A stretch of 64,000 bases of DNA from a virus (Duplodnaviria; Caudoviricetes), in IMG/VR virus record IMGVR_UViG_3300028833_000006, positions 47,213-111,212 of that record; one strand, given 5' to 3'. Each line of letters begins with the position of its first letter. The stretch's first letter is position 1. The translations under genes and the position numbers were made by a program. Under the pieces are notes generated by a model. The model saw only the letters and a list, made by a program, of their open reading frames with translations. It had not been told where the DNA came from and searched no databases. This document shows positions 1 to 64,000 of this stretch, one piece after another.

Positions 1-127
1 TATCGTCTTCTACTTTAGGTTCTGACACAGGTGTCACTTTCTTCTCAACAACCTTTGTGTCTTCCTTAATCTCCTCTAACACTTCATCTTTCTCAATTTC
101 GGTATTCTTGTTATCCACAAGTGCCAT
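1..127 (-). CDS. 5' part of a probable tail assembly chaperone (runs off the window)
   Basis: ATG at 127 after AGGAGG; reads MALVDNKNTEIEKDEVLEEIKED; position directly after the tail tube gene. Confidence 0.45.
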   Translation of the reverse strand, partial: MALVDNKNTEIEKDEVLEEIKEDTKVVEKKVTPVSEPKVEDD

Positions 128-147
128 ATTATCCTCCTTAAAATATG

Positions 148-184
148 GCATACACACAGGGGTATTTCACCCTATGTGTATGCT
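148..184 (-). terminator. Hairpin after tail tube gene
   Basis: Inverted repeat GCATACACA...TGTGTATGC just past the stop codon; weak U-tract. Confidence 0.45.
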
Positions 185-202
185 ACAATATCTCTGTAAG
201 TC

Positions 203-853
203 TTATACTGTCACGTCAGGTGTGAACTCAAAGTCATCAGATAACTTATCTACAGTACCTGGTGTTGACTTGTTTGAGTAGTGTACAGTAATGGGGAAGT
301 TAACCTTTGTGTCACCACCAAGTGAATCGTAAGTGATTGTACACTCAGTCTGCCTCTGTGCCTTATAACCGTTGGTCTCATCACCGATGTATGCAGTAAT
401 GATGTACATTGTGAACTGGTTAAGTTCTGATACTGCATTTCTGAACATGATATCATGCAACTTCGGTGCTAACTTTGAACCGCCAAGGATAAGGAACGGG
501 TCGAATGACTGCTCAGGCTCTGTCTTGTTCATATCTGTATATGAGTTACCACGAATATCAGTGGTTGTCTCAATATCGGGATTGAACTCGATAGAAGAGT
601 CTTCGGTACGAGTACCAAGGATATCTCTAACCTCTTCGCCCTTGTAATACTTATTGGTTTCAAAAGTAGGTGCTTCTGAACCAGTTACATGTGTATACAC
701 ATTACCACTCTTTGTGTAGTAGTCTGTGTAATTGGTAGACCAATCAGCGGGTGCTGACTCAAGAAGTGTGTACTCATCCCAAGCCGCTACCGTAATGAGT
801 GTCTTTCTCTCGGCTCTCTGACCTTGCGCCAGATTAAACTGCTCAACTGCCAT
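203..853 (-). CDS. Major tail tube protein
   Basis: 216 aa, acidic and beta-rich; follows the neck genes in standard siphovirus order. Confidence 0.7.
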   Translation of the reverse strand: MAVEQFNLAQGQRAERKTLITVAAWDEYTLLESAPADWSTNYTDYYTKSGNVYTHVTGSEAPTFETNKYYKGEEVRDILGTRTEDSSIEFNPDIETTTDIRGNSYTDMNKTEPEQSFDPFLILGGSKLAPKLHDIMFRNAVSELNQFTMYIITAYIGDETNGYKAQRQTECTITYDSLGGDTKVNFPITVHYSNKSTPGTVDKLSDDFEFTPDVTV

Positions 854-866
854 AATTCATTTCCTC

Positions 867-1358
867 CTATGATTTATTGTATATCTTTTTGCTTGTATCT
901 AGATAATCTACTTGTATAGTAAAACTATACTTTGCAAGCGGTGGTGTTGTCTGTGTATCCACACTGTTAAGTCTTGGATTTTCAGTTGTGACACGCATGT
1001 CATCTATCTCACAATACTCACCAAAATTAGGATAATTCCTAATGTCGGCTTGCTCGACTATCCAATCGATTATGTCTTGTACCTCTGAAAAGTCCATAAC
1101 ATTACTGTCAACATGACTTTCTGGGTCAACCTTTACTATTTGATTATAAGCCACTGACTTAAAATCTACAATAGTTGCGGAGTATCTTTTTTCAATACAT
1201 CCGTCTATATATGCTTTGTTGACAGCCTTGTCATTTGCTAATGCTACAATCTGCTTATTATTCTCTTTCGCATTGATGAAATTGAAATACAGCGGATTGT
1301 CTCTAATGATAGGACAGTCTAACAAAAAAGTTATTATCGCTTGGTTCTTGTCACTCAT
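867..1358 (-). CDS. Tail terminator / neck protein
   Basis: Position before tail tube; C-terminal AKYSFTIQVDY pattern. Confidence 0.5.
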   Translation of the reverse strand: MSDKNQAIITFLLDCPIIRDNPLYFNFINAKENNKQIVALANDKAVNKAYIDGCIEKRYSATIVDFKSVAYNQIVKVDPESHVDSNVMDFSEVQDIIDWIVEQADIRNYPNFGEYCEIDDMRVTTENPRLNSVDTQTTPPLAKYSFTIQVDYLDTSKKIYNKS

Positions 1359-3884: not shown

Positions 3885-4625
3885 TTAGTGAGACCTTACT
3901 CCTTGAAAGTCGAATGACCAATCTTCGTCACCGCTGTCAAACCCTTGTGCTGACCCAACAAATACTTCGGGAATCTCAATATCGTCAGGCTCAACTTCCT
4001 CTACCTTAGGCTCTTCAACAATCGGATGAGACACAACTTCTGACACTTCTGTCACAATCGGCTCAGGCTCTGGTAACTCTACTTTGAAAGCGTCTGCATT
4101 CTGCTCAGAATAGATAGATACAAAATCATCTGCACCTATTAGTCTATCCCCCTCCATCTGCAACTGCTTGGCAAGCATCTCCCTAGTGAAGTCTCTCTTA
4201 GCCGCCTCTGATGAGAATTGCTTTGTGTTAGCAAATTCCTTAACAGCAAACTCATACTTCTGCTGTGCCATAAGGTCTTTGTAATTCTTAACGTCTGCTT
4301 CGTACTTACTCTGTAAGTCTGACAGTGATGTCGTTAAGTCTGCTAACTTTGTAGCGTCCTCGTCAGCCGATTTTAACTTCTCTTGCAACTGTGCAAGGTC
4401 AGTATCCCTCGTGCTTATGGTCTCATTGAGTGTGTTTATCTGCTCGTCTCTAGTAGCAATCTCATTATCCTTCGCCTTGATAGCGGAATCAAATTTTGAT
4501 ACGCTGACATACTTACCGTCTGATAAGTCTGCAAATTTCGCCCCACTCTCTTTCGCCATTGCCTCGAACTGCTCATAGGTCAACTTACCGTCTTCGGCAT
4601 TCTCGAAAAGGTCTTTAATGTTCAT
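3885..4625 (-). CDS. Capsid scaffolding protein
   Basis: GKYVS..KF start, long coiled coil, acidic tail; directly upstream of capsid gene. Confidence 0.8.
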   Translation of the reverse strand: MNIKDLFENAEDGKLTYEQFEAMAKESGAKFADLSDGKYVSVSKFDSAIKAKDNEIATRDEQINTLNETISTRDTDLAQLQEKLKSADEDATKLADLTTSLSDLQSKYEADVKNYKDLMAQQKYEFAVKEFANTKQFSSEAAKRDFTREMLAKQLQMEGDRLIGADDFVSIYSEQNADAFKVELPEPEPIVTEVSEVVSHPIVEEPKVEEVEPDDIEIPEVFVGSAQGFDSGDEDWSFDFQGVRSH

Positions 4626-4779: not shown

Positions 4780-4844
4780 TATAGTATATCATACTTCTTA
4801 TTATTATGTAAACTGTTTTTCACAATATTTTGAAATATTTTTCA
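4780..4844 (-). promoter_or_regulatory. Promoter for scaffold/capsid operon
   Basis: TTTACA...TATACT on minus strand with upstream TGAAAAATATTTCAA palindrome variant. Confidence 0.5.
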
Positions 4845-4848: not shown

Positions 4849-6996
4849 CTATACATTATCTTGTGTCTTGAGTTTTGTCGCTTTGGTCTTTTTCTGCTTT
4901 AAGACTTGTGACTGCATGGACTGATATGCGCCACCGCCAACTTTTCCTACACCACCATTTGTAGAAATTTGGTTGCCTTGATTTCCTTGCCCCCCTTGTG
5001 CCCCTTGTCCATTGGTAGGGGTGGGTGCTTGCTGTCCTTGATTATTCGTGCCCCTATTATTATTGGCTTGAGTTGAATTTAAATTTTGTTGCTCACCGCT
5101 GACACTCGTGTCACTTTCCTCATCCCCCTTGTCTGAGTTGGTGGGGCTTTGGCTATTACCGTTGGAATTAGGGGAGGGTTGTCCTTGTGCCATCATTGAT
5201 GAGACTGCCATGTTCTGCTCAATTGCTTGTTGAGATTCTTCTTGAACTCTTTGCAGTGCATCCATTGCCTGTCTCTTGGTCTCTCCGTAATACCACATTC
5301 TTGTTTCTAACTTGCTTGCCAATCCCTTGTCCATGAGAGTGAGCCTTGTGTTTAACTCTGTTACCATGTCTACTAGAATGCTGTCATCCCATGTGAATGA
5401 GACATCGTAAAGACCTAACTTCTTGGTGTCCACTTTGCCCCCTCGGATTACTACGTCTCCGACAATGTTGTAAATTGTGCAGTAAACGTCCATTGCGTAA
5501 ATTACGTCTTTAAGGGCTGACTCTAATGCTTTTTGGATTTCTGCGTTGCTTGCGTAACTTCTTTGCTTTAAAATCTTAATCTCTGTTGCTGTTCTCGCCT
5601 CTGCGCTCACGTCTGCGATTGTGCCCCTGCTTAATGCCACTACGTCTTCAATTCGCATCAAAAGCGTGTTTAATCCATTAATCATTGACGCATCTCTAAG
5701 GCTTGGTGCGTAAGGTTTGTAAGTGTCTGACTCACCTAAGTCAACTGGTCTGTAAAGTCTTTGCTGTAAGTGCCCCATCATTGAATGAGAATTACCCTTA
5801 AAGTCTGTTACATCTGTAAGTGCATCTCTGTCAATGTCAATTGCTAATTCGCCACCTTCGTACTCCCAAAGTAATCTAGAATACTGTAAATCCGCTTGCT
5901 TGATTAACTCCTTTGCTCTTGCGAAACCACTGATTCCTAACGGTGAGTGCGGGTCAATCGTGTTTGCTTCTGGCATCTTAAAATAACCAAACATCATTCG
6001 GTCTACGTTCTTAATTGTTGCCCTCTGCGGAATGTTCTTCCATTCTGGAACTTGCTTTAACTCAATCTCTGCCCCAAGCACTGCGTTGCCCAAAGTCATC
6101 GTGTTGTCTGTTCGGTTCAGACTCCTAAATGCTCTGTTAGTGATTGTAACTGTGTTATTCTCCAACTTGTGATACTCTAACCTAGTGTAAGTGTATTCCT
6201 TGTCAACCTTGGTCTGTAAGAATGCTACCTCTATTAGATTGCCACTGCTGTCAAATGAAAAAGGATAAAAACAATCTGCTTGTACAAAGTCAAACTCTAT
6301 AGCGTACTTGTACTTCTTATTGTTCTTATCTGTTTTTATCTCTGCTGTTCCCTCTGTGTCATTAGTACTACTTTCAGAATTTGATTGCTCGTTTGTTGAT
6401 TCAGCGTTGGCTACACCTTCTGATTTCTGCTCTGCCTTTGCCCCCACCTTACTATTATCAAGTCCTGCTACCTCTGCTACTGCCATTCTTGTCACATAAG
6501 GTTTTATTATAAGACTACCTTTAGCAATACCCAATTCAAGTTGTGTTCTTAATCTAGAAAGCAACTTATCTTGGTATTCCTTATTCATAAACTCCGCTCT
6601 CTCTGTTGGAGATTTTGCTTTTTCCTTTATTACTGTTTTGGGTTTATTGCTAATAGATATGTTTCCATTTATATCTGATACTGGCGGTTGATACTCTGGA
6701 TTAACAACTTCTTGAATACTCATTGGTGCGGTTATCTCTGACTGTAATTCTAATACCGCCATCCTTGCTTTTTCACTTGCTATAAATGCTGGTAACCCCA
6801 AAGACGTTACTAATGAATGGTCTTTGAAATCTGGTTCGTGCAACCAATCTGCTCTGTCTTCATACATTGCTGTCCACTCATCAATAGCATCTATCATCTT
6901 ACTACTGATTGCTGGTGAAATATGTAATGTTTGTTCAATATTTTTAACACCTATCATACCTTGCACCTTCTCTTTAACTGTTGACCATAATGACAT
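4849..6996 (-). CDS. Portal protein with internal insertion and Q/N/G-rich C-terminal tail
   Basis: YTRLEYH, SPLGIS.FARA, YSRLLWEYEGG, RTATEI, WDDSI motifs of A118/SPP1-type portals; start moved to MSLW by RBS. Confidence 0.85.
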   Translation of the reverse strand: MSLWSTVKEKVQGMIGVKNIEQTLHISPAISSKMIDAIDEWTAMYEDRADWLHEPDFKDHSLVTSLGLPAFIASEKARMAVLELQSEITAPMSIQEVVNPEYQPPVSDINGNISISNKPKTVIKEKAKSPTERAEFMNKEYQDKLLSRLRTQLELGIAKGSLIIKPYVTRMAVAEVAGLDNSKVGAKAEQKSEGVANAESTNEQSNSESSTNDTEGTAEIKTDKNNKKYKYAIEFDFVQADCFYPFSFDSSGNLIEVAFLQTKVDKEYTYTRLEYHKLENNTVTITNRAFRSLNRTDNTMTLGNAVLGAEIELKQVPEWKNIPQRATIKNVDRMMFGYFKMPEANTIDPHSPLGISGFARAKELIKQADLQYSRLLWEYEGGELAIDIDRDALTDVTDFKGNSHSMMGHLQQRLYRPVDLGESDTYKPYAPSLRDASMINGLNTLLMRIEDVVALSRGTIADVSAEARTATEIKILKQRSYASNAEIQKALESALKDVIYAMDVYCTIYNIVGDVVIRGGKVDTKKLGLYDVSFTWDDSILVDMVTELNTRLTLMDKGLASKLETRMWYYGETKRQAMDALQRVQEESQQAIEQNMAVSSMMAQGQPSPNSNGNSQSPTNSDKGDEESDTSVSGEQQNLNSTQANNNRGTNNQGQQAPTPTNGQGAQGGQGNQGNQISTNGGVGKVGGGAYQSMQSQVLKQKKTKATKLKTQDNV

Positions 6997-7062
6997 ATTT
7001 ATATACCTCATATAATTATGTAAACTACCACAAAATATTATACTAAATATTTATTTCTGTGT

Positions 7063-9726: not shown

Positions 9727-9789
9727 CTTACAAGTATAGTATAAGGCAATACTTATTATATGTCAATACTATTTTGAAAAATTTTTCAA
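9727..9789 (-). promoter_or_regulatory. Repeated early promoter
   Basis: TTGAAAAATTTTTCAA palindrome, TTGACA (9766-9761), 17 bp, TATACT (9743-9738), then GTAAG. Confidence 0.85.
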
Positions 9790-12924: not shown

Positions 12925-12988
12925 CTTACAGTATCATTATAAGGGTATACTTATATATTGTCAATACCTTTTTTGAAAAATTTTTCAA
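12925..12988 (-). promoter_or_regulatory. Repeated early promoter
   Basis: Palindrome + TTGACA-17-TATAAT + GTAAGG. Confidence 0.85.
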
Positions 12989-49221: not shown

Positions 49222-49234
49222 AATAATATCTCCT

Positions 49235-50085: not shown

Positions 50086-50092
50086 ATCTCCT

Positions 50093-51098: not shown

Positions 51099-51304
51099 AC
51101 CTCTACAATCTTATACTTACCGCCCCTAATACCTCTATCAAGTTTAGCAAGCATTTCAATAGTTTCTTTTAAAGTATACGATGTCTTATCCAACTCCATT
51201 ACAAATGTATCCGAATCATCATCCCAATTTTTCACAAAATTAGAATAAAAATCAAATGATAAATCTGCTATAGGCTTTGAAAAATTACTTGTCACGTCTT
51301 GCAT
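51095..51304 (-). CDS. Hypothetical protein
   Basis: RBS. Confidence 0.5.
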   Translation of the reverse strand: MQDVTSNFSKPIADLSFDFYSNFVKNWDDDSDTFVMELDKTSYTLKETIEMLAKLDRGIRGGKYKIVEV

Positions 51305-51315
51305 ATACTTACTCC

Positions 51316-52119: not shown

Positions 52120-52157
52120 ACACGTCTCTCCTTTCATAAAACCACACAATATAACTA

Positions 52158-52219
52158 CTTACAGTATAAGTATATACCAAAGTATTGTATAAGTCAATAC
52201 TTTTTGAAATATTTTTCAA
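52158..52219 (-). promoter_or_regulatory. Repeated early promoter
   Basis: Palindrome + TTGACT-17-TATACT + GTAAG. Confidence 0.8.
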
Positions 52220-53007: not shown

Positions 53008-53939
53008 TATATTAAACTCGCTTTCTTCTTCGTATCTACAATCTCAATCTTGGTAGCCCTACTATTTCTCAAGTTACAACAATCATTCGGATTATAATTG
53101 AAATTATCTTGCCAATACTTATACGCTCTATCCTCATCCTCGCATACTGTCATTTCCTTAAATCCAGTTATCTTACTGATATACTCTATTTTCTTCTCAA
53201 GTGGTAGATGACGGTATCCGCCATGCTTAACAGTATGCTCAGAATAATCTATATCAAACCACTTTTGTATCCAACTATTTACTCTTAGAAATTCTATCAA
53301 TATCTTGTCGCACTTAACATTATTAAGGATATCAAAATCTATATACTGCGGTATAAACGGTGACAATCTCAACTGTACATCAAATCCATGCTCTTGCAAT
53401 GTCTCAATTGCTCTTATTCGCTCACTAGGAACACTTGCTTTCTCATAAGTGACACTTCTGTCATCATCAGTAGTTGTAACCGTTACTTGTATATGTGCTA
53501 AATCTCTATCAAGTATTTCAAGATATTCTTCATCTGCAATAATCGCACTCTTTGTAACTATAAGATATTCTATACCACGCTCATTAAGTGCTTTAATTGT
53601 TTCATAAGTAACTCTTTGTGTCTTCTCAAGTGGTTGAAAACAATCGGTCATTCCACCAAGTCTTATTGCTGGCATATCAGTGGGTAATTTTGCAACCAAC
53701 TTTTTAATCTTGTTTATATCAGCCACACTTGGATTATCAGGATGCCACAAACCTCTAAAATCCAACAAACTACGAGCATAACAAAAGGAACAGTTATGTG
53801 AACAACCACATCCATATGTATCCAACCTTGTAGGATAATGACACTTATTACCCTCATTACCACCAACTGTCTTGTAAAAACTCTTAAATTCAGTCACAAC
53901 ATCACCTCGTACATCATTGAAACTACATTCACATGTCAA
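53007..53939 (-). CDS. Radical SAM protein (spore-photoproduct-lyase-like subfamily)
   Basis: DTYGCGCSHNCSFCYA, GGMTDCFQ, VTKS, RLSP; real start probably GTG near 53897. Confidence 0.8.
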   Translation of the reverse strand: MTCECSFNDVRGDVVTEFKSFYKTVGGNEGNKCHYPTRLDTYGCGCSHNCSFCYARSLLDFRGLWHPDNPSVADINKIKKLVAKLPTDMPAIRLGGMTDCFQPLEKTQRVTYETIKALNERGIEYLIVTKSAIIADEEYLEILDRDLAHIQVTVTTTDDDRSVTYEKASVPSERIRAIETLQEHGFDVQLRLSPFIPQYIDFDILNNVKCDKILIEFLRVNSWIQKWFDIDYSEHTVKHGGYRHLPLEKKIEYISKITGFKEMTVCEDEDRAYKYWQDNFNYNPNDCCNLRNSRATKIEIVDTKKKASLI

Positions 53940-54238
53940 TTATAATTTTGATATGGGATTATTTTTTAGAATTTATATACAATCAGAATTGTACAACTGC
54001 ACCAATTTGTTATATCTCCTTACGTGTTTCAAGTTGTTATCTATACTAAACATTGTATATGTTGTTAATCAAATTGTCAAGAAAAATATCTGATTATTTT
54101 ACCCATAACCAACGTGCATGGAATACCAACCAATGTATTGATATCTCAATATTCTTATCAACTATTCTCGCATCGTTTGTACGTATCTCAATACTAGGAA
54201 TTACACATATCCAATCCGTGTATATCTTAAAATCTGCT

Positions 54239-54469
54239 CTAACTAATTTCATTATCTACCCCTTGTGAATAATTCAAATATTCAACTAACTTCATTGTAG
54301 TTGAAGTAGCCCTTTGCAAATCACATAATATAGCATTTTCCATATCACTAATATTTGCGCCACACAACAATTGTTTATCATTTATCTCCTCTGGTAATCT
54401 TGCGACTTGTCTCATAAACTCCGCTGTTGCTGAACACATATCAACTTTTAATTGTACCATACTACTCAT
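54239..54469 (-). CDS. Hypothetical protein
   Basis: RBS. Confidence 0.5.
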   Translation of the reverse strand: MSSMVQLKVDMCSATAEFMRQVARLPEEINDKQLLCGANISDMENAILCDLQRATSTTMKLVEYLNYSQGVDNEIS

Positions 54470-54595
54470 ATCACCCCATACTCATCTTCAAGGTATTACT
54501 GCAATTCCACCCATTCAATTTTGCGCTCAACATGGCTTGTCTTGCGCCTCTTGAACATACATCTGTGCCATCTAATATGCAATATTCGCAATAAT

Positions 54596-54832
54596 TCATT
54601 CATGCTCCTTTCTGTACTTGTCAATCACATTCATTGCGTGTTTCAAACCACTTGCATAATCGTAATCGTCTATCCCACATTTAGTATATCTTTTCACAAT
54701 TTTGGCTCTTATCTTATCAAGCACATCACTGATTGGTGTACCATTCTCATAAAAGTCGCAAACATCTTTATCCTTAAATTCATCTATCCACCTGCATACT
54801 TCGCAATGGTTACAATCATAACAATTTTTCAT
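54596..54832 (-). CDS. Mosaic small ORF (LDKIR...IDKY family)
   Basis: Shared module with neighbours. Confidence 0.6.
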   Translation of the reverse strand: MKNCYDCNHCEVCRWIDEFKDKDVCDFYENGTPISDVLDKIRAKIVKRYTKCGIDDYDYASGLKHAMNVIDKYRKEHE

Positions 54833-54856
54833 TCCTTATCCTCGCTTTCCTGTGGC

Positions 54857-55180
54857 TCAAATATCATTGTCATCATCTTCGTCCTCGTATATCTTCTTGA
54901 ATGTTCCTTTCGGTGCGACTATACGATTGTCTGCGTTGGGAGTGTTCCATATTTCGCTTTCTCCCTTCGTGTATTTGTCGATAATATCAAGTGCCCTTTT
55001 CAACCCTACGCTGATTCCGCAATCAATATCATCTTGTGTGTATCTGCTTTCCTTTTCAGCGTTTGATAAGTCCTCGGCTATGTCTGTTCTTATTTTATCT
55101 AGTACATCTACACTTATTAATTTGCCAACTATTTTCTTTGGTTGCTTAAAATCCAATTCATCCATTTCCATTATCCCCAC
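54857..55180 (-). CDS. Mosaic small ORF (LDKIR...IDKY family)
   Basis: Shared module with neighbours. Confidence 0.6.
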   Translation of the reverse strand: MGIMEMDELDFKQPKKIVGKLISVDVLDKIRTDIAEDLSNAEKESRYTQDDIDCGISVGLKRALDIIDKYTKGESEIWNTPNADNRIVAPKGTFKKIYEDEDDDNDI

Positions 55181-55407
55181 TCCTCTCGGTACTTGTCGAT
55201 AATTTCTAGTGCTTCCTCTAATCCATCTTCGTGAGTATGGTCTGATATGACACCATAATTTTCTTCTTTTATCTTCGTCTGTATCTCTGCTCTTATCTTA
55301 TCTAATATTTCAACTGGTATAAAAACCTTATCTCTTCCACCATAACAGAGTAGTACTTCCTTTGCGTCCATATCACCCCTTGTTACTTGCATTGCTACTC
55401 TTCTCAT
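55171..55407 (-). CDS. Mosaic small ORF (LDKIR...IDKY family)
   Basis: Shared module with neighbours. Confidence 0.6.
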   Translation of the reverse strand: MRRVAMQVTRGDMDAKEVLLCYGGRDKVFIPVEILDKIRAEIQTKIKEENYGVISDHTHEDGLEEALEIIDKYREEWG

Positions 55408-55589
55408 TCGTTCACCCCTTTCCTGTATTTGTCAATTATTTCAATCGCTTTTAAAAGACCACTGTTATACACGAAATCATCTTCATATTCACAAGTTACA
55501 CACTCTTTTTCTATATCTGCCCGTATATTGTCAAGTACCCCAATCGACAATACATTGTGCATTACTCCATCATCGTCTATTATTATCAT
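55404..55589 (-). CDS. Mosaic small ORF (LDKIR...IDKY family)
   Basis: Shared module with neighbours. Confidence 0.6.
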   Translation of the reverse strand: MIIIDDDGVMHNVLSIGVLDNIRADIEKECVTCEYEDDFVYNSGLLKAIEIIDKYRKGVNE

Positions 55590-55774
55590 CCACTCTCCTT
55601 ATCTGCCATCATATTTATCAGCAACGACACATAATAATATAATCATTACAACAAGACTTATAACCTCTTCTTTGTAATATGTCCAAATCATTATTAAATT
55701 TATAAGTGAAAGACATAGTATAACAGACCAAAATAAGATATATATGGTGACTTTAAGTATTTTGCCTATTAGTA

Positions 55775-56089
55775 TCATTCTATCTCCTTCTCGTGCTTGT
55801 AGATAATCTCGCTCTTAACAGTTCCGAAGTAACCACCCTCATTACGAATAATGATTGTGTCCTTGCGTATCTCGTCAACATAGCCGTGTATCAATACTTC
55901 TTGTCCTATCTTCACCTCTGTTCCGTTTTTTATCTGCACATTCTGTTTTTCTTGTTGCTCCAAACTATCAAAATAACTTTCTGCGTCACGAATGTCATAA
56001 AATGGGTATAAATACCTAAACATTTTGGCAATTCTCTTATCTAGTTCTTTGTATTTTTGTAACTCTTTTTCAAGGTCACTCTTGCTCAT
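55775..56089 (-). CDS. Hypothetical protein
   Basis: ATGA overlap with upstream gene. Confidence 0.55.
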   Translation of the reverse strand: MSKSDLEKELQKYKELDKRIAKMFRYLYPFYDIRDAESYFDSLEQQEKQNVQIKNGTEVKIGQEVLIHGYVDEIRKDTIIIRNEGGYFGTVKSEIIYKHEKEIE

Positions 56090-56415
56090 TCCTGCTCCTT
56101 CCTGTACTTGTCGATAATCTCCAATACCTCGTCCTTAAATACCCACGGCCGGTCATTGTGGTAACTTGATATACCTTCTTCTATGTCATTTATCTCCGTC
56201 CTTATCTTGTCAAGCAATTCTGTGTACGGTGGTTTGCCCCAAATACTTTCAACGGTTTCCTTGATGACTTCCTCATCATGCTTTTCAAGTGGTGTACCAA
56301 GTCTTAATGCTCTTGCCATTTCGCATATATCATCTGTCGCTATTTCGTTGTCTTGTATACCATTGTCAAATAGCCTTGTATAAACATCCTTGGGTATCTT
56401 AATAACTAACTCCAT
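56086..56415 (-). CDS. Mosaic small ORF (ELVIKI + LDKIR...IDKY)
   Basis: Two shared modules fused. Confidence 0.6.
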   Translation of the reverse strand: MELVIKIPKDVYTRLFDNGIQDNEIATDDICEMARALRLGTPLEKHDEEVIKETVESIWGKPPYTELLDKIRTEINDIEEGISSYHNDRPWVFKDEVLEIIDKYRKEQE

Positions 56416-56436
56416 TTATTCCTCACTCTCTGTATC

Positions 56437-56718
56437 TTATTCTGTGATTGTTATTCCTAATCGTTTATCTAAACAATCCAATAAATAGTCTAATCCATAA
56501 GGAAAACCGCAATTTAATGCTTTCATATCACTTTTTAATCCCTCTAAATCAAGTGGTGTTCCGTTGGCTATCAACTTAAAAGGCTTGTAATCATTCCCTT
56601 GTGCAACGTCGTGCTTTATTATTTCAAAGTAATCCTCGGATATCTTAATTACTAATTCTATATCTGCCATATTATTTCTCACTTTCTGCCTTGAAATGTC
56701 TTTTAATAACAACATCAA
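56437..56718 (-). CDS. Mosaic small ORF (MADIELVIKI...NGTPL)
   Basis: Shared module; probable start MADIE. Confidence 0.55.
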   Translation of the reverse strand: MMLLLKDISRQKVRNNMADIELVIKISEDYFEIIKHDVAQGNDYKPFKLIANGTPLDLEGLKSDMKALNCGFPYGLDYLLDCLDKRLGITITE

Positions 56719-56832
56719 GCATTTCCATTATGCCTTTCAAATCATTTTGTGTTGCTTGCTCGGGAATTATGATTTTGGCGATTGCTCCATTTTCACAAGT
56801 GTAACTTTGGACATAAACATCAATATAGTTTG

Positions 56833-57018
56833 TCATTCCTTCTCGCTCCTTTCCTGTGGCTCAAAAAAATGATTGTATATTGCTTGCATTATTGCTTTGT
56901 CTGCATCTTTCATAACAAATCTTCCACACTCTAATACGTTTGCTTCGGGATTTTTTGCAAACAATCTGCAATCTTCTCTGTGGACACACTTCCAACATAT
57001 ACTTGGTCTATTGCTCAT
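56833..57018 (-). CDS. Small Cys-rich ORF ending EPQERSE
   Basis: ATGA overlap; shared C-terminal junction. Confidence 0.55.
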   Translation of the reverse strand: MSNRPSICWKCVHREDCRLFAKNPEANVLECGRFVMKDADKAIMQAIYNHFFEPQERSEKE

Positions 57019-57470
57019 ACTTCCTCACTTTCCTGTACCATCTTTGCACCGCAATTAGGGCAATAATTCCATTTTCTGTCTGCATCCTTATATACCCATA
57101 CTGTATCTTTACACTCGGAACACTCACAGATATATGCGTTATCTCCATATCCGTCACTTACTAATATCCAATGCCCTATCATTGGCTGTGGTGTGACGGG
57201 TGGTAACTGCTTTATAATTTCATCTAATCTTATGTTTAAGGGGTTGTTTACTATATCAAGCACCGCCTGTCTGCTTATAGCATCGGAGTTATTAGGTTTA
57301 TCCCACTCATTCATATATGCCTTGACTACTTTACAAGTGTCAGTATTACATGGTTCTTGCTCTAGTGCTTTGATTGCCATATCTAATGCCTCGCACCAAT
57401 CTTTTTGGTATTCGTCATCTGCTACCTGCCTAGAATATATCAGTTTATCTATTGCTTCTTCCCTAGTCAT
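57015..57470 (-). CDS. Zinc-ribbon mosaic ORF (MTRE...LEQEP...GHWI...CPxCGAxM)
   Basis: Paralog of 58014..58508 and 58505..58807. Confidence 0.65.
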   Translation of the reverse strand: MTREEAIDKLIYSRQVADDEYQKDWCEALDMAIKALEQEPCNTDTCKVVKAYMNEWDKPNNSDAISRQAVLDIVNNPLNIRLDEIIKQLPPVTPQPMIGHWILVSDGYGDNAYICECSECKDTVWVYKDADRKWNYCPNCGAKMVQESEEV

Positions 57471-58042
57471 TCGGTCTCTCCTTTTGTACCCACAATTTGT
57501 TTCATCTGTGCTATCTGCTCCTGTTTTATCTCACATTCCTTACAAAGGAAAAGTCTATTCTCGCTTAACTCTTTGCCACATATCAGACAATTTCCATTTG
57601 TGATTATTTTTACCCCAGGTATCCGGGATACAATATTCTTATGATTTTGCTTATCCTCGTACTCTTTGATTTTGGCTATGGCTTCATCTACGGAATAATC
57701 AACCCAATTAGAGCATCCACCAAACACGGTAATGATTTCGGATACGGTCATCTTGTATATCTTCTTGGCACATTCCCATGCTTCCATCCGTCCATCTTCC
57801 AGTCCGTCCTTGTAGTCAAGGTCTGAGTTGTGTTTTTTCTCAGACTCATTCATTACAGCGTTTATACCGTCCACATAGCCCTTGCGATATACCTTTTCTC
57901 CCCCATCATACGGCTCTAACTTTTCAAGCCCGTATTTGTCAAAGACTAAGGCATTAAACCCCTTAATCCTCGCTATCTGCGGTGCTCCGTTACGTCTGAT
58001 TACTTCCTCAATCTCAATAATGTACTTGTCTCCTACTTTCAT
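57467..58042 (-). CDS. Hypothetical protein with C-terminal zinc ribbon
   Basis: Start MKVGDK; AWECAKKI motif. Confidence 0.55.
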   Translation of the reverse strand: MKVGDKYIIEIEEVIRRNGAPQIARIKGFNALVFDKYGLEKLEPYDGGEKVYRKGYVDGINAVMNESEKKHNSDLDYKDGLEDGRMEAWECAKKIYKMTVSEIITVFGGCSNWVDYSVDEAIAKIKEYEDKQNHKNIVSRIPGVKIITNGNCLICGKELSENRLFLCKECEIKQEQIAQMKQIVGTKGETE

Positions 58043-58508
58043 TCGCTTTCTCCTCCCACATTCTCGCACCGCAATTCGGACAGAAGTTAGTTTTTTCCTT
58101 AACCCATTCATTACAATTACTACAAGAATATTCTGTATTGTAATTGTCATCATTCCATCCTGTGTGTTCTATCCAATGCCCTGTCTTTGGCTCTTGCTTA
58201 ATACATAATTCTTCCGTTGTTGGTTGCATTACTACATAATTTCCGCAGTTATCAGGTTCTATGTGTGGTGGCATATAAAAAACACATTTCGTCCTAACAA
58301 TGCCCGATTGAAATTCACATCCGATATTTGTGCAGGAACTACATAAGTTATCTGCCTGTCTGCTTATCGCATCACCGCTTGGCTCTTGCTCTAGTGCCAA
58401 TGTTTCAAGTTCCTTTTTCAGATATGCAGGACTAATTATTGGCTTTTCAAAATCTTCATCATTCGGACATATAATGCTGATAATATTATCTATATCTTCT
58501 CTTGTCAT
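58014..58508 (-). CDS. Zinc-ribbon mosaic ORF
   Basis: LEQEP, DAISRQA, GHWI, CPNCGARM. Confidence 0.65.
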   Translation of the reverse strand: MTREDIDNIISIICPNDEDFEKPIISPAYLKKELETLALEQEPSGDAISRQADNLCSSCTNIGCEFQSGIVRTKCVFYMPPHIEPDNCGNYVVMQPTTEELCIKQEPKTGHWIEHTGWNDDNYNTEYSCSNCNEWVKEKTNFCPNCGARMWEEKANESRRQVHY

Positions 58509-58807
58509 TCCTCGCTCCTTTCCTGTGGCTCAACCATCTTTGCACCACACCACGGACAAAATGGACTTTCTCCGCTCCAATCTCGCAAGTCAGCATTTTC
58601 TCCACACGCAGAACACTTATAAACAGGTATGGTATTCCACTTACCCTCATTCACGTTTATCCAATGCCCTGTCTTTGGCTCTTGCTCTAATGCTTTGATT
58701 TCATCTATATATTTTTGTAGTTCTTCAACAGTTATATAAACTTGTGATTTCTTTAATCTGCCTACTGTATAAAGTTCTAATCCGTCTACGATTTCTTCTC
58801 TTGTCAT
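58505..58807 (-). CDS. Zinc-ribbon mosaic ORF
   Basis: LEQEPKTGHWI, CPWCGAKM, EPQERSE. Confidence 0.65.
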   Translation of the reverse strand: MTREEIVDGLELYTVGRLKKSQVYITVEELQKYIDEIKALEQEPKTGHWINVNEGKWNTIPVYKCSACGENADLRDWSGESPFCPWCGAKMVEPQERSEE

Positions 58808-59034
58808 ACTTCCTCGCTTTCTGCCTTGTGTTTAATAGGTATCCTGTTACCTTTATCGTCATAGGTTTCGGTTACGTGTGTGTCAACAAAATCTTTGGAA
58901 AGTGTATAAAATTCTTTTCCGAACTTGGTAACAACATATGCCATACGGCTTTTGTCAAAAGTCATGTTTGCAAGTATGAATAATACTTGTTTTGGATTAA
59001 AACCTAATGATGATAACAGCTCCTCAAACGTCAT
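58804..59034 (-). CDS. Hypothetical protein
   Basis: RBS; ends AESEEV. Confidence 0.5.
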   Translation of the reverse strand: MTFEELLSSLGFNPKQVLFILANMTFDKSRMAYVVTKFGKEFYTLSKDFVDTHVTETYDDKGNRIPIKHKAESEEV

Positions 59035-59043
59035 TCATCATCC

Positions 59044-59253
59044 TCACTTTCTGTACTTGCTCTCGTAGTATTCCTCACGTTCAAGTTCATCTAGTCTGTC
59101 ACGCCAATCGTCAACATCATCCTGCTCCTCATTTTTTGCCTTGTATTGACATTCTTTTTCATCACAACACCATTCGTGCCAAATATCCTCAACATAGGCT
59201 TTATCACAAGATAAACAAGGTTCACAAAGTAATCCTTCATCATCAAAATACAT
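59044..59253 (-). CDS. Small acidic Cys-rich protein
   Basis: ORF packing. Confidence 0.5.
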   Translation of the reverse strand: MYFDDEGLLCEPCLSCDKAYVEDIWHEWCCDEKECQYKAKNEEQDDVDDWRDRLDELEREEYYESKYRK

Positions 59254-59258
59254 AATAA

Positions 59259-59651
59259 TTATTCACCATCCTTAGAGTATACGTCCATATCACTCAAATC
59301 TAATTCTTCTGTGCCTAAATTGTATCGTGAAGATAATCTCAAATAACCACAAGGTAAACAGTCTATGCGCCAAGATTTAGGTTTAATCATACTTGGCAAA
59401 GAAAATCCATCAAAATCAAATTCTCCATACCCACCAATACCATCTAAATGTAATACATCTGAGCACCCACCGAACTTACATATAGGTTCATTATTATCAT
59501 CTACCGCAACAAAATCCATATTCATCCAACCACTCTCATGCTTTCTTCTAGTGGGGATAATCACAAGTGACCTAAATAAACCGATATTTGTCCCATGTTC
59601 TCTATATGGTATCTTCTTAAAATCTTCCTTTGTCATTTTTGTTATCTTCAT
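59259..59651 (-). CDS. Hypothetical protein
   Basis: SLVIIP...HESGW..M, CSDVL.LDGIGG, W.IDCLP motifs. Confidence 0.6.
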   Translation of the reverse strand: MKITKMTKEDFKKIPYREHGTNIGLFRSLVIIPTRRKHESGWMNMDFVAVDDNNEPICKFGGCSDVLHLDGIGGYGEFDFDGFSLPSMIKPKSWRIDCLPCGYLRLSSRYNLGTEELDLSDMDVYSKDGE

Positions 59652-59899
59652 ACAGTCTCCATCTCCTTTTTTATTTTCTTAAATTCTTCCGCAGTCATAT
59701 TCATTGGCTTAAAATATTCGTCAACCCATGCATATGGTTTCATATAATGCTGTATTGTATTTCTCGCCTCTTCTCTTGCCTTTTCTGCACACAACTCAAC
59801 ATACTCATCATCTGTCAAGTTATAATCTGTAATACAATCTACTACCGTAGAAAATCTACAAATCTTACCATTAGGCTGTCTTGCGATAAACGCTCCCAT
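59648..59899 (-). CDS. Hypothetical protein
   Basis: FIARQPNG..CRFSTVVD..T.YN.T..EY motif; own promoter. Confidence 0.6.
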   Translation of the reverse strand: MGAFIARQPNGKICRFSTVVDCITDYNLTDDEYVELCAEKAREEARNTIQHYMKPYAWVDEYFKPMNMTAEEFKKIKKEMETV

Positions 59900-60038
59900 A
59901 AAAATCTCCTTTCACGTAACCCCTTAATCTATAAACATTATATACAATGTTTGAGTATATGTCAACACATTTTTGTATAAAACAAAAAGTGGCTAAATCT
60001 CAACAACTTAGCCACTCCTCGCTAAAATATGACAAATC

Positions 60039-61139
60039 TTAATCTTGTATCAATGCGATTATTGTAATTACATCTGTATCCACCAATTTAATTGCGTTAT
60101 CAAGACCAAACTCAATTTCTACTGCATCTGACATGAATGAATGTACTCTATTATACAGCATATTAATGTCTATATGTGCTACAAAAGGCTCTGTGGTATT
60201 TATAGACTTATCTGTATATGGTATTAACTCAATGCCTGTATCTAACTTACTTGATATTCTAATACCATCACTTGCAAATTCTAATAATATCTCACCGTCA
60301 TCAAACTTACCGACAAACAACTTAATTCTGTCAAGTGCATTCGATAACACACCACGGTCAACCGAGCACACATTATCAAACTTCTGATTAAATAAACCAT
60401 TGAGTGCGTCAATTGCAAAGTTCTCAATACCTTGTGGCATAGTACTGTATATGACACAACTGTCACTTACAAATTTCATCTTAGTGTCATTTGCATATAT
60501 ATCCACACTATCATCAGTAATTACATCTAACAGATTAACCATATTAACATTCACAAGTCTTGGTGATTCACCGTCTTTGAACAATGCCTTATCATATGCA
60601 CTTGCAATTATGGTATCTGTACCTATTACTTGCTTACCGAAATAATAATGTGCATAACAAGGAATTTCTAATGTGGTAGCCACTGATGACTTAAGCCCAT
60701 TAAGAATTGTTTTAATATCGGATATTGTAAGACTACCAATATTACTCATCTCAACATCTTCGTCAAGTGGACTTCCGATAACAATTCCTTTACCTGTACT
60801 CTCATCAACTTGTATAGGCAGTTTATAGTTACCATTACCCCTCACACCCAAATAGTTATCAAACAACTCAAATGTGATATCATCACTCGTTATCTTAGAT
60901 ATCAACTTGACAAGTGTGTCAGTTTCTACACACACATAAAAATCATCACCGCTCACATCCGCACCTTTAATATACAGATAATTAGTACCGTCTGTAGTCA
61001 TAAGTGTAAGAACATTATCTTTTAACTCAATAACAACATAAGTAGTAATTGGCAACAATCTATTGTTAGACGCACCCCTACTTGCTTTTGACAACATTTC
61101 TTGGAATTTCGCTGTACTTACTGTTAACTTCATCTTCAC
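60039..61139 (-). CDS. dnaN: DNA polymerase sliding clamp (beta subunit-like)
   Basis: 366 aa; LPI, LTLMTTDG, GTD, L..ALDR three-domain pattern. Confidence 0.75.
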   Translation of the reverse strand: MKMKLTVSTAKFQEMLSKASRGASNNRLLPITTYVVIELKDNVLTLMTTDGTNYLYIKGADVSGDDFYVCVETDTLVKLISKITSDDITFELFDNYLGVRGNGNYKLPIQVDESTGKGIVIGSPLDEDVEMSNIGSLTISDIKTILNGLKSSVATTLEIPCYAHYYFGKQVIGTDTIIASAYDKALFKDGESPRLVNVNMVNLLDVITDDSVDIYANDTKMKFVSDSCVIYSTMPQGIENFAIDALNGLFNQKFDNVCSVDRGVLSNALDRIKLFVGKFDDGEILLEFASDGIRISSKLDTGIELIPYTDKSINTTEPFVAHIDINMLYNRVHSFMSDAVEIEFGLDNAIKLVDTDVITIIALIQD

Positions 61140-61149
61140 TAAGCCTCCT

Positions 61150-62325
61150 TTAAAATAATCTCTTTAATGTACCGTGTATACGGTTCTCAGCAATCTTAAC
61201 ATACTCCTCATTCAACTCACATCCGACATAATTTCTATAATTATGCTTTGCCACAACTCCAACCGTGCCACTACCCATAAAAGGGTCTAATACTATACCT
61301 CCTTTAGGACAGCCTGCAACTACCATCGGATATATCAATTCTTCTGGAAATGTTGCAAAATGAGCACCTTTAAATGGTCTAGTTGGGATACTCCATACAT
61401 CACGCTTATTTCTCACCAAATATTCTTTATCCTTACCACCATATTCACGGTTCATATGCATACTATTTGACGGTTGACCATCATATTGACAATTCTTTGT
61501 CCTTGGTTGATACTCGTTACCGCTATACACATGATTCTCAACGTTACCTGGATATTTATTACCGCCATATTTTATATGTGCTGATGGATTTTGAATATTA
61601 CAAGGTTCTTGTATTGCCTCATAATCAAAATAATAATCTTTTGATTTACTCAACAAGAAAATATATTCATGGGATTTTGTACACCTATCCTTTACAGATT
61701 CTGGTAGTGGATTCATCTTTTGCCATATTATATCTTGACGCAAATACCACCCATCTGCCCTTAATGCAAACGCTACAGCCCACGGTATACCTATCATATC
61801 TTTGGGCTTTATTATATCATGTTGCCATCTCCTTGTAGTTTGTATTTCTGTAAGACTGCCTTTATTAGATAACTGTTTATCACTTATATTATCTCCACCA
61901 CCCCATCTACCTTGACCGCCAGCATAACTATCTCCAAGATTTAACCACAAAGTACCGTCTCTCTTAAGTACCCTTTTTACTTCACGAAAAATTATGACAA
62001 GTCTGTCAATATACTCTTCGGGTGTTTCTTCTAACCCAACTTGTAAATCTTCTCTAACTGCACCACATAAAGGACAAACTGTTTTGTATATAGCATCACC
62101 CACATTACCACGCAATTCTTCTTGCGCATGGCCAGTAATAGTCCTATCCGAATATTTACTTAACCTTTTATGCGGACAATTTGGGTCGCCACCAACCCAC
62201 TTACCTGTACCATAATCTCTTAACCCATAATAAGGTGGACTTGTCACACAACAATCTATACTCTCATCCTCAAATGTTTTGAGTATGTCAATATTGTTGC
62301 CTTGATATATCTTGTTAATCTCCAT
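61150..62325 (-). CDS. DNA methyltransferase (N4-C/N6-A, beta class)
   Basis: VTSPPY, HFATFP, LDPFMGSGT. Confidence 0.9.
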   Translation of the reverse strand: MEINKIYQGNNIDILKTFEDESIDCCVTSPPYYGLRDYGTGKWVGGDPNCPHKRLSKYSDRTITGHAQEELRGNVGDAIYKTVCPLCGAVREDLQVGLEETPEEYIDRLVIIFREVKRVLKRDGTLWLNLGDSYAGGQGRWGGGDNISDKQLSNKGSLTEIQTTRRWQHDIIKPKDMIGIPWAVAFALRADGWYLRQDIIWQKMNPLPESVKDRCTKSHEYIFLLSKSKDYYFDYEAIQEPCNIQNPSAHIKYGGNKYPGNVENHVYSGNEYQPRTKNCQYDGQPSNSMHMNREYGGKDKEYLVRNKRDVWSIPTRPFKGAHFATFPEELIYPMVVAGCPKGGIVLDPFMGSGTVGVVAKHNYRNYVGCELNEEYVKIAENRIHGTLKRLF

Positions 62326-62334
62326 TAAATTACC

Positions 62335-63150
62335 TCAAAATAATTTACTTTGCTTACATTCTGAAATCCGTTTATTGTATGGATTATCAGTAGGCACTAC
62401 TTTATATGGATACCCATTCAACCTTGATATACTTTCTTTCCAATATGCTTCGGATATCTCAAACCCTATAAATTGTCTACCCATTGATTTTGCAACATAA
62501 CATGTCGTGCCACTACCACTAAATGGGTCAACTACCAAATCACCCTTATAGGAAAGTAAATCAATACATAACTGTGGTAATCTCTCTGGGAAATTTGCTA
62601 ATGTATATGACGGTGTTGTTCCTATATGCCACACACCACTACAACCTTCCATAAAATCATTTTTATGAATTGTAGACTCACCTTTATTTATTTTATTCCA
62701 CTGCTTCTTATAGGCTATAAAAATACCTTCATACGGACAGTTTATGTGCGGTGCACTTGCACTTAACCAACTACCCCAAGCAGTCTGCTTTTTCATTGTT
62801 AAATCATCCCACACAACCACACGATGACTATTATAGCCTATCTTATCCATAATGTTTTTGATATCAAACAATGGAAATCTTGACTCGTGATTACCGTTTT
62901 CATCAAGTGGATTATTACAGAAATAATGATTTATACAAATCCTACCATCATCCTTAAGGACTCTATAACACTCCACTAACCAACTCTCGCACCATTTAAG
63001 ATATTCATCCCACGGCATACGGTCATTCCAACTATCATACTGTATTCCAAGATTATATGGGGGAGAAGTAACTATTAAGTCTACGGCATTATCTTCTATT
63101 TGTCGTAAACCATCTATACAATCCATATTATATATATTATTTGTTTCCAT
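62335..63150 (-). CDS. DNA methyltransferase (N4-C/N6-A, beta class)
   Basis: VTSPPY, ANFP, VDPFSGSGT. Confidence 0.9.
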   Translation of the reverse strand: METNNIYNMDCIDGLRQIEDNAVDLIVTSPPYNLGIQYDSWNDRMPWDEYLKWCESWLVECYRVLKDDGRICINHYFCNNPLDENGNHESRFPLFDIKNIMDKIGYNSHRVVVWDDLTMKKQTAWGSWLSASAPHINCPYEGIFIAYKKQWNKINKGESTIHKNDFMEGCSGVWHIGTTPSYTLANFPERLPQLCIDLLSYKGDLVVDPFSGSGTTCYVAKSMGRQFIGFEISEAYWKESISRLNGYPYKVVPTDNPYNKRISECKQSKLF

Positions 63151-63174
63151 ACAACTCCTTATATGACAATGTTG

Positions 63175-64000
63175 TCATAAATCATCAATATCAATTTTAT
63201 CCCCATACCAACGCTCGGCAACTTCAACATCACAACTTATAGGAACTACAAATTTCTCACCTGGTGCCTCTGACATAACTTTTGCGAATAATGGTATAAC
63301 TTCTTTAGCATTCTCTCTTGGACATTCTGCAATGATTTCATCATGTACTTGAATCAACATCCTAAATCCGAGTTCCTTCAACCGTTGATTTTTACACAAA
63401 GCAGTCATTGCAAGTTTAGTCATATCTGCGGCCGTTCCTTGTATTCTTGCATTCACAACCTTTGTATAGTCCTTATCCTTAGTATGGTCAATTATTTTAT
63501 ATCCTTTGGACTCAGCAAGCCCCATTATCTTCGACTTCTCTTTAAATTTACACTTAGATATTCTAGAGATAAAATAATCTTGCACATCTCTTGGCACTTC
63601 AAGTTCAATATCATCAACAAAATTAAGGATATCAATATTTCTAGTGGAATGTAACCAAACTACCTCATAATCTGGCAACAACATTGACGGTAATCTACGT
63701 TTCCTCCCCCATAATGTAGTAATATACCCCAATTCCTCAACCATACGATAACTTTGCCTTTCAAATTCAGCAATGGCAGGAAACCCAGTAAATACATCAT
63801 TTTTTATTCTTTCTGCCTCTTCTTTAGTACAACCTACTTGTTCCGCAATACTTGTAGCACCACGTCCATAATTTATACCGAGGAGGATGGCTTTCGCTTG
63901 ACTTCTACGCTCCTTACCGTCTGCATACGTATCCTTTTCACCGTCTGCGATTTTATCATAATCGTCTTCTGTACCATAGTACCACTTATCACCTTTTTGC
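63175..64000 (-). CDS. polA: Family A DNA polymerase, C-terminal part
   Basis: Frame open to window edge; RSQAKAILLGINYG (motif B), GRKRR, IQGTAAD, QVHDE (motif C). Confidence 0.9.
   Translation of the reverse strand, partial: QKGDKWYYGTEDDYDKIADGEKDTYADGKERRSQAKAILLGINYGRGATSIAEQVGCTKEEAERIKNDVFTGFPAIAEFERQSYRMVEELGYITTLWGRKRRLPSMLLPDYEVVWLHSTRNIDILNFVDDIELEVPRDVQDYFISRISKCKFKEKSKIMGLAESKGYKIIDHTKDKDYTKVVNARIQGTAADMTKLAMTALCKNQRLKELGFRMLIQVHDEIIAECPRENAKEVIPLFAKVMSEAPGEKFVVPISCDVEVAERWYGDKIDIDDL

Follow-up and report, generated by a model that had tools for sequence, protein, structure and literature searches.

Why should a phage genome carry dozens of exact copies of one short palindrome, and what would read them? 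The question is raised by a stretch of 64,000 nucleotides ("the window"), bases 47213–111212 of the phage record IMGVR_UViG_3300028833_000006, which has 111,212 bp with a 127-bp terminal repeat; positions below are those of the window unless given as genome positions. The element is TGACANNNNTGTCA (TGACA-N4-TGTCA), and our analysis showed that it is a strict site, selected as DNA, which recurs in the chromosomes of a subset of Lachnospiraceae, a family among the main gut and rumen bacteria. The array and its bacterial counterpart are solid, and from them we infer a reader of the site and a benefit to the phage.

A strict palindrome common to the phage and Lachnospiraceae chromosomes

The whole phage contains 54 exact copies of TGACA-N4-TGTCA against 0.1–0.2 expected, 33 of them in the window. 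All 32 starts listed in the first-pass annotation of this DNA were correct, and one more was found at 1220; its estimate of about 0.1 expected copy agrees with 100 dinucleotide shuffles of the window, which gave a mean of 0.11 copies and a maximum of 1. When the distance between the half-sites was varied from 0 to 15 over the whole phage, 54 copies were found at 4 and at most one at every other spacing, i.e. the single spike by which that annotation would have recognised a genuine site, and everted and direct arrangements of the half-sites gave at most one each. Changes within the half-sites are tolerated as little: one-mismatch forms are barely enriched (19 against 5.6 expected), and among the 5-N4-5 palindromes one base pair away from the motif the sole enriched one is TGAAA-N4-TTTCA, a separate promoter element described below. 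The four central bases are free, as had been claimed, save for a pyrimidine/purine preference at the two outer spacer positions, and the full preference covers about 20 bp, WW-a-TGACA-y-NN-r-TGTCA-t-WW. Distances between neighbouring sites are random-like in the structural half of the genome (coefficient of variation 0.92) and slightly regular in the replication half (0.67, P = 0.03). Chance, composition and a by-product of protein coding were ruled out as the cause by dinucleotide, Markov and synonymous-codon shuffles.

Almost all phage genes lie on the minus strand, and about 39 of the 54 sites are inside genes, in both of the frames that avoid an in-frame TGA, which bears out the earlier statement that most copies are in coding sequence. 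The codon-preserving shuffles that had been proposed as a check, applied to all genes, gave a mean of 1.1 copies and a maximum of 5 against the 39 observed, and therefore selection acts on the DNA itself. The core of the genome has 58 peptide contexts in which the motif could be encoded, and it is encoded in 35 of them; per kb, the motif-free zones have about 8-fold fewer contexts of this kind, and thus the amino-acid sequences, too, have been shaped to fit the motif. A strict dyad selected at the DNA level is what a dimeric protein would be expected to bind, and to this extent the sequence speaks for the type of site proposed at first.

Counterparts in bacteria were searched for by scanning public collections, including 185,579 species genomes, for two motif copies 245–275 bp apart. 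The species genomes gave at least 120 matches to this pair pattern, and about 45% of the matches listed were metagenome-assembled genomes of Lachnospiraceae from animal guts, ruminants included. Enrichment was then expressed as the whole-genome count against a reversed-pattern control, in host genomes which are all draft metagenome assemblies. An even sample of 121 Lachnospiraceae gave a bimodal distribution, with about 9 genomes strongly enriched (20–179 copies, control 1–4) and the others near control; in the motif-rich genomes the excess is 10- to 175-fold. Counts of five such genomes, under our own labels, are as follows:

G007: motif 179, control 4
G093: motif 175, control 1
G009: motif 70, control 3
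G006: motif 55, control 1
G097: motif 41, control 3

As in the phage, enrichment in bacteria spikes at N4 only. Perfect copies are enriched 45- to 175-fold in G007 and G093, one-mismatch forms just 2.3- to 2.6-fold (455 against 196 in G007, 143 against 54 in G093), a profile that matches that of the phage. The extended logo, WWa-TGACA-y..r-TGTCA-tWW, is alike in G007 and the phage: A or T occupies positions -3 and -2 in 91% and 78% of sites in G007 and in 92% and 85% in the phage, and the preference for A at -1 and the pyrimidine/purine bias at the outer spacer positions are found in both. At first the motif had been taken to mark the core genome of the phage; its enrichment in these bacteria, with the same flanks and the same strictness, shows that it is not private to that genome.

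In G007 all 29 sampled sites lie within long open reading frames (ORFs), on many contigs, in genes of all functional classes (ABC transporters, glycosidases, alanine racemase, AddAB-like genes and others), and no functional theme was found among the genes carrying these sampled sites. No similarity to phage proteins was found on dense host contigs; this, together with the placement of the sampled sites in ordinary long ORFs, indicates that the host sites are chromosomal. They occur in genes of either orientation, and site pairs recur at orthologous loci across species. The two sites of one dehydrogenase-like gene are the same in four species, down to three synonymous positions in each, whereas neighbouring synonymous positions vary.

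The host sites are also concentrated regionally. In genome G130, 29 of 41 sites fall on three contigs totalling 595 kb, one of them with dnaA, while five contigs totalling 840 kb hold a single site, and chance matches at other spacings do fall on these near-empty contigs; the contig with the origin holds 18 of the 41, at 68–345 kb from dnaA. Clusters of one site per 3–8 kb were seen in G097 and G132, and site-poor contigs total 610–840 kb (in G007 with its 179 sites and in G130 with its 41). Overall host density is one site per 18–60 kb, the phage being 9–21 times denser. The GC content of G097 (38–39%) is near that of the phage (36–37%), and the motif-rich Lachnospiraceae would be the hosts of this phage. 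As the site is common to both, equally strict and equally flanked, a host-encoded reader is the simplest account.

A second way of looking at a motif common to phage and bacterium is as a "self" tag like HIP1, a palindrome repeated through the genome in connection with DNA methylation, repair, recombination or uptake, or with a host nuclease sparing tagged DNA, which the phage would gather in order to pass as self or to aid recombination-dependent replication. The 10- to 175-fold over-representation and the conservation inside ORFs fit the definition of HIP1 (PMC5861425, PMC4390886), the strictness is reminiscent of a restriction enzyme, and the phage encodes two adjacent N6/N4 methyltransferases along with a large anti-defence set (Tad3, PARG, ADP-ribosyltransferases, MazG). 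Yet the host sites are sparse and clustered, with hundreds of kb without any, a poor fit to a genome-wide tag, and a 28-kb phage stretch free of the motif would remain exposed. Moreover, neither phage methyltransferase has close homologs in the motif-enriched genomes or co-occurs with them, which leaves the earlier idea of a methyltransferase target without support. We consider such a tag quite improbable.

A few other carriers of the pattern were met. An unrelated phage of 52.8 kb and 68% GC (IMGVR_UViG_3300043499_000086) has 39 copies, about half of them intergenic; it was rejected as a case of the same array, its motif being really a longer 20-bp palindrome, GGGTGACA-N4-TGTCACCC, and no proteins being common to the two phages. 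In Lactococcus nasutitermitis NBRC 111537, TGACAGAACTGTCA and its close variants number 640 in 2.2 Mb, against 2 for the control; here the spacer is fixed, pointing to a repeat element, probably like repetitive extragenic palindromic sequences or miniature inverted-repeat transposable elements, and this case was set aside as well. A 59%-GC phage carries 9 copies and 13 other IMG/VR records carry 2–4 each; the scan of viral contigs also returned tandem-repeat contigs and single-pair contigs.

Sites within genes and at gene junctions

About 15 of the 54 sites lie at gene junctions, and in 6 of these the preceding gene ends with the TGA of the motif. Sites at junctions are 3-fold more frequent than expected; 6–7 sites stand 12–15 nt ahead of the next ATG and 6–7 abut a Shine-Dalgarno sequence. 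The motif is a perfect palindrome and thus without orientation, and the sites of the window are given here without strand:

23–36, inside a gene
989–1002, inside gene 867–1358
1220–1233, inside gene 867–1358 (the copy missing from the first list)
4041–4054, inside gene 3885–4625
5100–5113, inside the portal gene 4849–7011
33561–33574, junction site; TGA is the stop of ORF 33572–33754, and the small-terminase start is 60 nt downstream
33824–33837, intergenic, about 25 nt downstream of a TGATATAAT extended -10-like box read from the sequence
33921–33934, junction site; TGA is the stop of gene 33932–34462, followed by a terminator-like hairpin at 33919–33886
34476–34489, junction site; TGA is the stop of 34487–35266, and the next ATG is 13 nt on, the site lying beside its ribosome-binding site
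35335–35348, intergenic, 1 nt past the stop of 35350–35790
35805–35818, intergenic, 14 nt upstream of the ATG of 35350–35790
37053–37066, 15 nt upstream of the likely ATG of gene 35970–37067
38069–38082, junction site; TGA is the stop of the ADP-ribosyltransferase gene 38080–38862, and the next ATG is 15 nt downstream
39619–39632, intergenic, below the clamp-loader gene 39712–40680
40032–40045, inside the clamp-loader gene 39712–40680
40311–40324, inside the clamp-loader gene 39712–40680
40474–40487, inside the clamp-loader gene 39712–40680
41255–41268, inside the delta'-like gene 40863–41720
42019–42032, inside the clamp-loader gene 41717–42751, in a stretch variable among homologs
43140–43153, in the small ORF 43074–43292, 71 nt upstream of gene 42748–43068
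45546–45559, inside gene 44995–45654
45990–46003, inside gene 45823–46305
47273–47286, inside the UvsX-like recombinase gene 46896–47918
48848–48861, in the small ORF 48818–49021
49613–49626, inside gene 49235–49861
50792–50805, inside the RecU/PDDEXK-like gene 50604–51098
51021–51034, inside the RecU/PDDEXK-like gene 50604–51098
52737–52750, inside gene 52216–53007
53450–53463, inside the radical-SAM gene 53007–53939
60452–60465, inside the sliding-clamp gene 60039–61139
60908–60921, inside the sliding-clamp gene 60039–61139
61995–62008, inside the methyltransferase gene 61150–62325
63164–63177, junction site; TGA is the stop of the PolA C-terminal ORF 63175–63744, 13 nt upstream of the ATG of the methyltransferase gene 62335–63150

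With almost all phage genes on one strand, and 6–7 sites abutting a Shine-Dalgarno sequence, the motif may also be imagined as an RNA element, a 5-bp stem with a 4-nt loop in transcripts of one strand that would act as a processing site or as a translational operator near ribosome-binding sites. One-mismatch variants that keep G-U pairing number 10 in the sense and 4 in the antisense direction, a difference that is not significant (about P = 0.09). Against this stand a weak hairpin, an invariant stem sequence around a free loop, 14 other compensatory stem variants which are unenriched (the enriched TGAAA/TTTCA being a promoter element), and host sites that are found in genes of both orientations, with conservation at the level of DNA. 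An RNA element is thus the least credible of the explanations weighed here, and we give it very little chance.

The motif-rich DNA of the phage comprises replication genes (clamp, three clamp-loader-type genes, UvsX, a PolA fragment, primase/helicase and an intein-containing SNF2 helicase), two methyltransferase genes, structural and lysis genes and some effector genes. The intein in the SNF2-family helicase gene (genome 17219–19828, minus strand) has an HNH_3 endonuclease domain. The N6/N4 DNA methyltransferase genes are adjacent (61150–63150, minus strand), and the first has a large insertion in its catalytic domain. Genes for anti-defence and takeover lie at about 0.2–17 kb of the genome and at 38080–52149 of the window, and include a Tad3 Thoeris inhibitor, a microbial PARG (51316–52149) and MazG (47918–48259); ADP-ribosyltransferases are encoded at 38080–38862 and 24624–25448. 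Two tRNA genes, Gln(TTG) and Trp(CCA), are at 48284–48578 (minus strand). Finally, a perfect TTGACA-18-TATAAT promoter with a TG extension (43637–43608) is followed by about 300 nt without a convincing ORF; this region, 43290–43637 (minus strand), may be a non-coding RNA, and it has no Rfam match at the gathering score.

Motif-free early operons and candidate phage readers

Two parts of the window are without the motif, and the zero counts reported for both by the first-pass annotation were confirmed:

5114–33560, minus strand, motif-free zone of 28.4 kb; small accessory genes in early operons, and terminase genes at 30.0–33.5 kb
53464–60451, minus strand, motif-free zone of 7 kb; small ORFs

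Under uniform placement the larger gap has a chance of about 1e-7; the smaller one, with P = 0.03, is weak when taken alone. A second palindrome, TGAAAAATWTTTCA = TGAAAAAT(A/T)TTTCA, is found in 14 copies against 0.27 expected, at N4 spacing only, and its outline, TGA.A-N4-T.TCA, is that of the main motif. All 14 copies are outside real genes, and 12 of them lie 4–8 nt upstream of a near-identical sigma-70 promoter, TTGACA-17-TATAAT/TATACT, in the place of an UP element. The complete layout is TGAAAAATWTTTCA, 4–8 nt, TTGACA-17-TATAAT/TATACT and then tgtaagga. Ten of the 12 promoters are in the 28-kb gap, and two are in the other low-density accessory zone, at genome positions 10190 and 10869. 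Copies in the window, all on the minus strand, are:

9775–9788, TGAAAAATTTTTCA palindrome, UP-element-like, just upstream of a TTGACA-17-TATACT early promoter
12974–12987, early-promoter palindrome with -35/-10 boxes
15744–15757, early-promoter palindrome with -35/-10 boxes
18304–18317, early-promoter palindrome with -35/-10 boxes
18992–19005, early-promoter palindrome with -35/-10 boxes
20652–20665, early-promoter palindrome with -35/-10 boxes
23382–23395, early-promoter palindrome with -35/-10 boxes
29010–29023, early-promoter palindrome with -35/-10 boxes
29935–29948, early-promoter palindrome with -35/-10 boxes
52205–52218, early-type promoter palindrome, the only one within the motif-rich replication module
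4831–4844, TGAAAAATATTTCA copy without a recognisable -35 box behind it
33780–33793, TGAAAAATATTTCA copy in a 5' leader, without a -35 box behind it

Since the gaps hold these 12 sigma-70 promoters, they are early operons read by the host RNA polymerase, and the 28-kb segment is indeed the early-promoter region that it had been thought to be. The terminase genes are also in the motif-free zone, which is thus not purely accessory. The small terminase gene (TerS, 32982–33500) is inside the gap, as is the large one (TerL; pieces 32337–32789, 31478–31852 and 30761–31219), which is split by a group I intron (31952–32362, minus strand, Rfam RF00028, 54 bits) and followed by an HNH endonuclease gene (30026–30760). 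With a length of 3.5 kb, the terminase genes could lack sites by chance at the core density. The early cassettes may lack the site as recent arrivals of fast turnover, or else because binding there would be harmful.

The phage itself has proteins that could be considered as readers. At least two HTH_3 (helix-turn-helix, HTH) proteins are supported by Pfam, a homing-endonuclease-like protein has an HTH_17 domain, and three proteins deserve to be listed:

43884–44102, minus strand, Xre/Cro-type HTH protein of 72 aa, Pfam-supported; candidate phage-encoded reader
42748–43068, minus strand, protein of 106 aa with HTH and coiled coil by eye; no Pfam family above threshold
genome 2520–2720, HTH_3 protein of 66 aa

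Among the binders put forward by the first-pass annotation, the product of 43884–44102 is a genuine Xre/Cro-type protein, but neither it nor that of 42748–43068 has homologs that track the motif-rich bacteria, and the candidate at 7162 matched no DNA-binding family. A six-frame search of the whole phage for ParB_N (PF02195) gave no match at E<=0.1, and sequence searches of PDB with the phage HTH proteins returned generic Xre/SinR matches only.

A protein of this kind would be a phage-encoded dimeric regulator (43884–44102, 42748–43068 or genome 2520–2720) that coats or blocks middle and late DNA and leaves the early operons free, as a stoperator-like silencer or organiser; the bacterial enrichment would then be a separate matter, or be due to related regulators of resident elements. 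It is in favour of such a regulator that sites are missing exactly where the 12 early promoters sit, that junction sites are over-represented 3-fold with 6–7 of them 12–15 nt before an ATG, and that the phage has its HTH_3 proteins. Xre/434-type operators are typically 14-bp dyads with a free centre, which the motif resembles. Furthermore, in another phage (IMG/VR L093:5022-5306, L099:483-767) two motif copies exactly flank a 66-aa Cro-like HTH gene, adjoined by a divergent 98-aa HTH gene, and the arrangement looks like a classic switch with operators of this motif. On the other side, a phage reader leaves unexplained why the same site, flanks and strictness are conserved in bacterial housekeeping genes. 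No homologs of the 72-aa and 106-aa proteins were found in motif-enriched genomes, the phage HTH proteins have no alignable similarity to the motif-flanked Cro-like genes of L093, and no motif was found at the promoters of the phage HTH genes themselves. No sign of an integrase or of lysogeny was seen among the Pfam families across about 170 phage ORFs, and the sites are palindromic and mostly in genes, unlike L5 stoperators. A phage-encoded regulator is, in our judgment, unlikely, even though it stands ahead of the self tag.

A possible host docking site and its known counterparts

We prefer, tentatively, to regard the motif as the sites of a host chromosome-domain protein that the phage has copied, a possibility to which we give somewhat less than even chances. 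The element would be a strict palindromic docking site of a putative sequence-specific dimeric DNA-binding protein, encoded by the host, which would belong to a subset of Lachnospiraceae. In these bacteria the site would mark chromosome domains, since a strict in-gene palindrome with tens to about 180 copies, conserved between species and leaving large regions empty, leads to the proposal of a host domain marker, as with RacA/ram, Noc/NBS, SlmA/SBS and MatP/matS. The phage would have added the site, at 9–21 times the host density, to those middle and late regions that have long been part of its genome (genes for replication, structure and lysis, and some effector genes), and has none of it in its early operons, which consist of exchangeable cassettes. 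Its DNA would thereby be plugged into a host system for anchoring or segregation, e.g. into daughter cells or forespores; alternatively, the sites may exert a nucleoid-occlusion-like effect on the infected cell. Carriage of phage DNA in spores is conjecture. To our knowledge, nothing has been described of chromosome organisation and segregation in Lachnospiraceae. The fuller picture, in which some gut and rumen Lachnospiraceae mark their chromosome domains by a system not yet described and a large virulent phage has copied this "centromere-like" code so that the host machinery anchors, segregates or carries its DNA, is more doubtful, and we would not expect all of it to hold.

Several observations weigh against a host reader. 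The phage encodes Xre-type HTH proteins able in principle to read the sites, searches for a reader in the phage and in the enriched genomes (ParB_N, HTH proteins, methyltransferases) yielded none, and the L093/L099 arrangement suggests that phage regulators with this motif specificity plausibly exist. With respect to oriC the picture is mixed: in G130 the nearest site is 68 kb away from dnaA, in G132 the short contig bearing dnaA is without a site, and the dnaA contigs of G061 and G125 are absent from the sites listed for those genomes. Host density, at one site per 18–60 kb, is low against one per 1–2 kb in the phage, and the link between phage and host is one we infer from the motif itself, GC content and habitat. 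Finally, 80 relatives of the phage in IMG/VR, with 50–56% clamp-loader identity, have zero copies, from which the array is young or lineage-specific; no other dominant palindrome was found in them. As to closer relatives, there was no DNA match among GenBank phages and none was found by single-protein scans of IMG/VR and of JGI metagenomes, and a search with an 18-mer of the early promoters matched unrelated contigs only.

The literature search for the motif in phages or Lachnospiraceae returned only plant WHIRLY elements and response-regulator boxes. The latter, of CusR/CopR and GraR/BceR type, are literally TGACA-N4-TGTCA with A/T-rich flanks and are bound by winged-helix proteins (PMC12428095, PMC3128592). 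Unlike these boxes, which are few in a genome and lie near promoters, upstream of the -35 box, the sites described here form arrays and are mostly inside genes. They also differ from ParB/parS or KorB/OB arrays, whose palindromes of 13–16 bp have a conserved centre, in that the phage has no ParB_N match and the four central bases are free. Stoperators of mycobacteriophage L5, the analogy first drawn for this DNA, are asymmetric sites that follow the direction of transcription, lie in short gaps between genes and bind the repressor of a temperate phage. Like them, the motif occurs as dozens of copies of a short site across the phage and is absent from one block; unlike them, it is palindromic, in genes in about 39 of 54 cases and common to bacterial chromosomes, with no lysogeny genes among the Pfam matches of the phage. 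The palindromic form and the placement in genes speak against this analogy.

HIP1, GCGATCGC of cyanobacteria, is likewise a strict palindrome kept by selection in and between ORFs, and lineage-specific, and its reader or function long went unrecognised. It is an 8-mer over-represented 15- to 300-fold, present about once per gene genome-wide and methylated by orphan enzymes (PMC5861425, PMC4390886), whereas our motif is bipartite, far sparser in its hosts (one per 18–60 kb) and regionally clustered. Closer parallels may be found among proteins that mark chromosome regions. Noc/NBS (Noc-binding sites; PMC4331003, PMC8429893) and SlmA/SBS (SlmA-binding sites; PMC3020112) are, like the host motif, strict in-gene palindromes with tens to about a hundred copies per chromosome and a large part left free; NBS differs in that it resembles parS, with 16 bp and no free spacer, and is read by a protein of the ParB family. 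The ram sites of RacA in Bacillus subtilis, TGACGCCGGCGTCA, are palindromes of 14 bp whose TG/CA end steps are the essential contacts, and they occupy 25 clustered regions (PMC4914108). RacA itself has a MerR-type winged HTH and a coiled coil. Our motif is also a 14-bp palindrome, with TGAC-N6-GTCA ends at the same spacing, and in the host its tens of sites are clustered in one chromosome region and largely within genes; it differs from the GC-rich conserved core of ram (GCCGGC) by its free centre and by A and T at positions 5 and 10. The ram sites are origin-proximal, a feature to which the 18 G130 sites at 68–345 kb from dnaA may be compared, but not the dnaA contig of G132, which has none, both being draft genomes.

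For a phage that uses the sites of its host, the closest precedent is phi29, which carries five host parS sites bound by Spo0J and used for spore entrapment, together with 0A boxes bound by the host Spo0A (PMC2731898). Like phi29, a virulent phage of a spore-forming Firmicute, the phage studied here carries a site that recurs in the chromosome of its presumed host; unlike phi29, with its five parS and known reader, it has 54 sites of a different sequence, mostly in genes. A palindrome that is strict, conserved and regionally clustered offers a direct handle for finding its reader, and it could also serve as a signal for predicting the hosts of uncultured phages. If the proposed copying of a host site is true, it would be relevant to the persistence of gut phages and to their spread along with spore-forming hosts, and the use of host chromosome sites as practised by phi29 would have a second, far stronger example.

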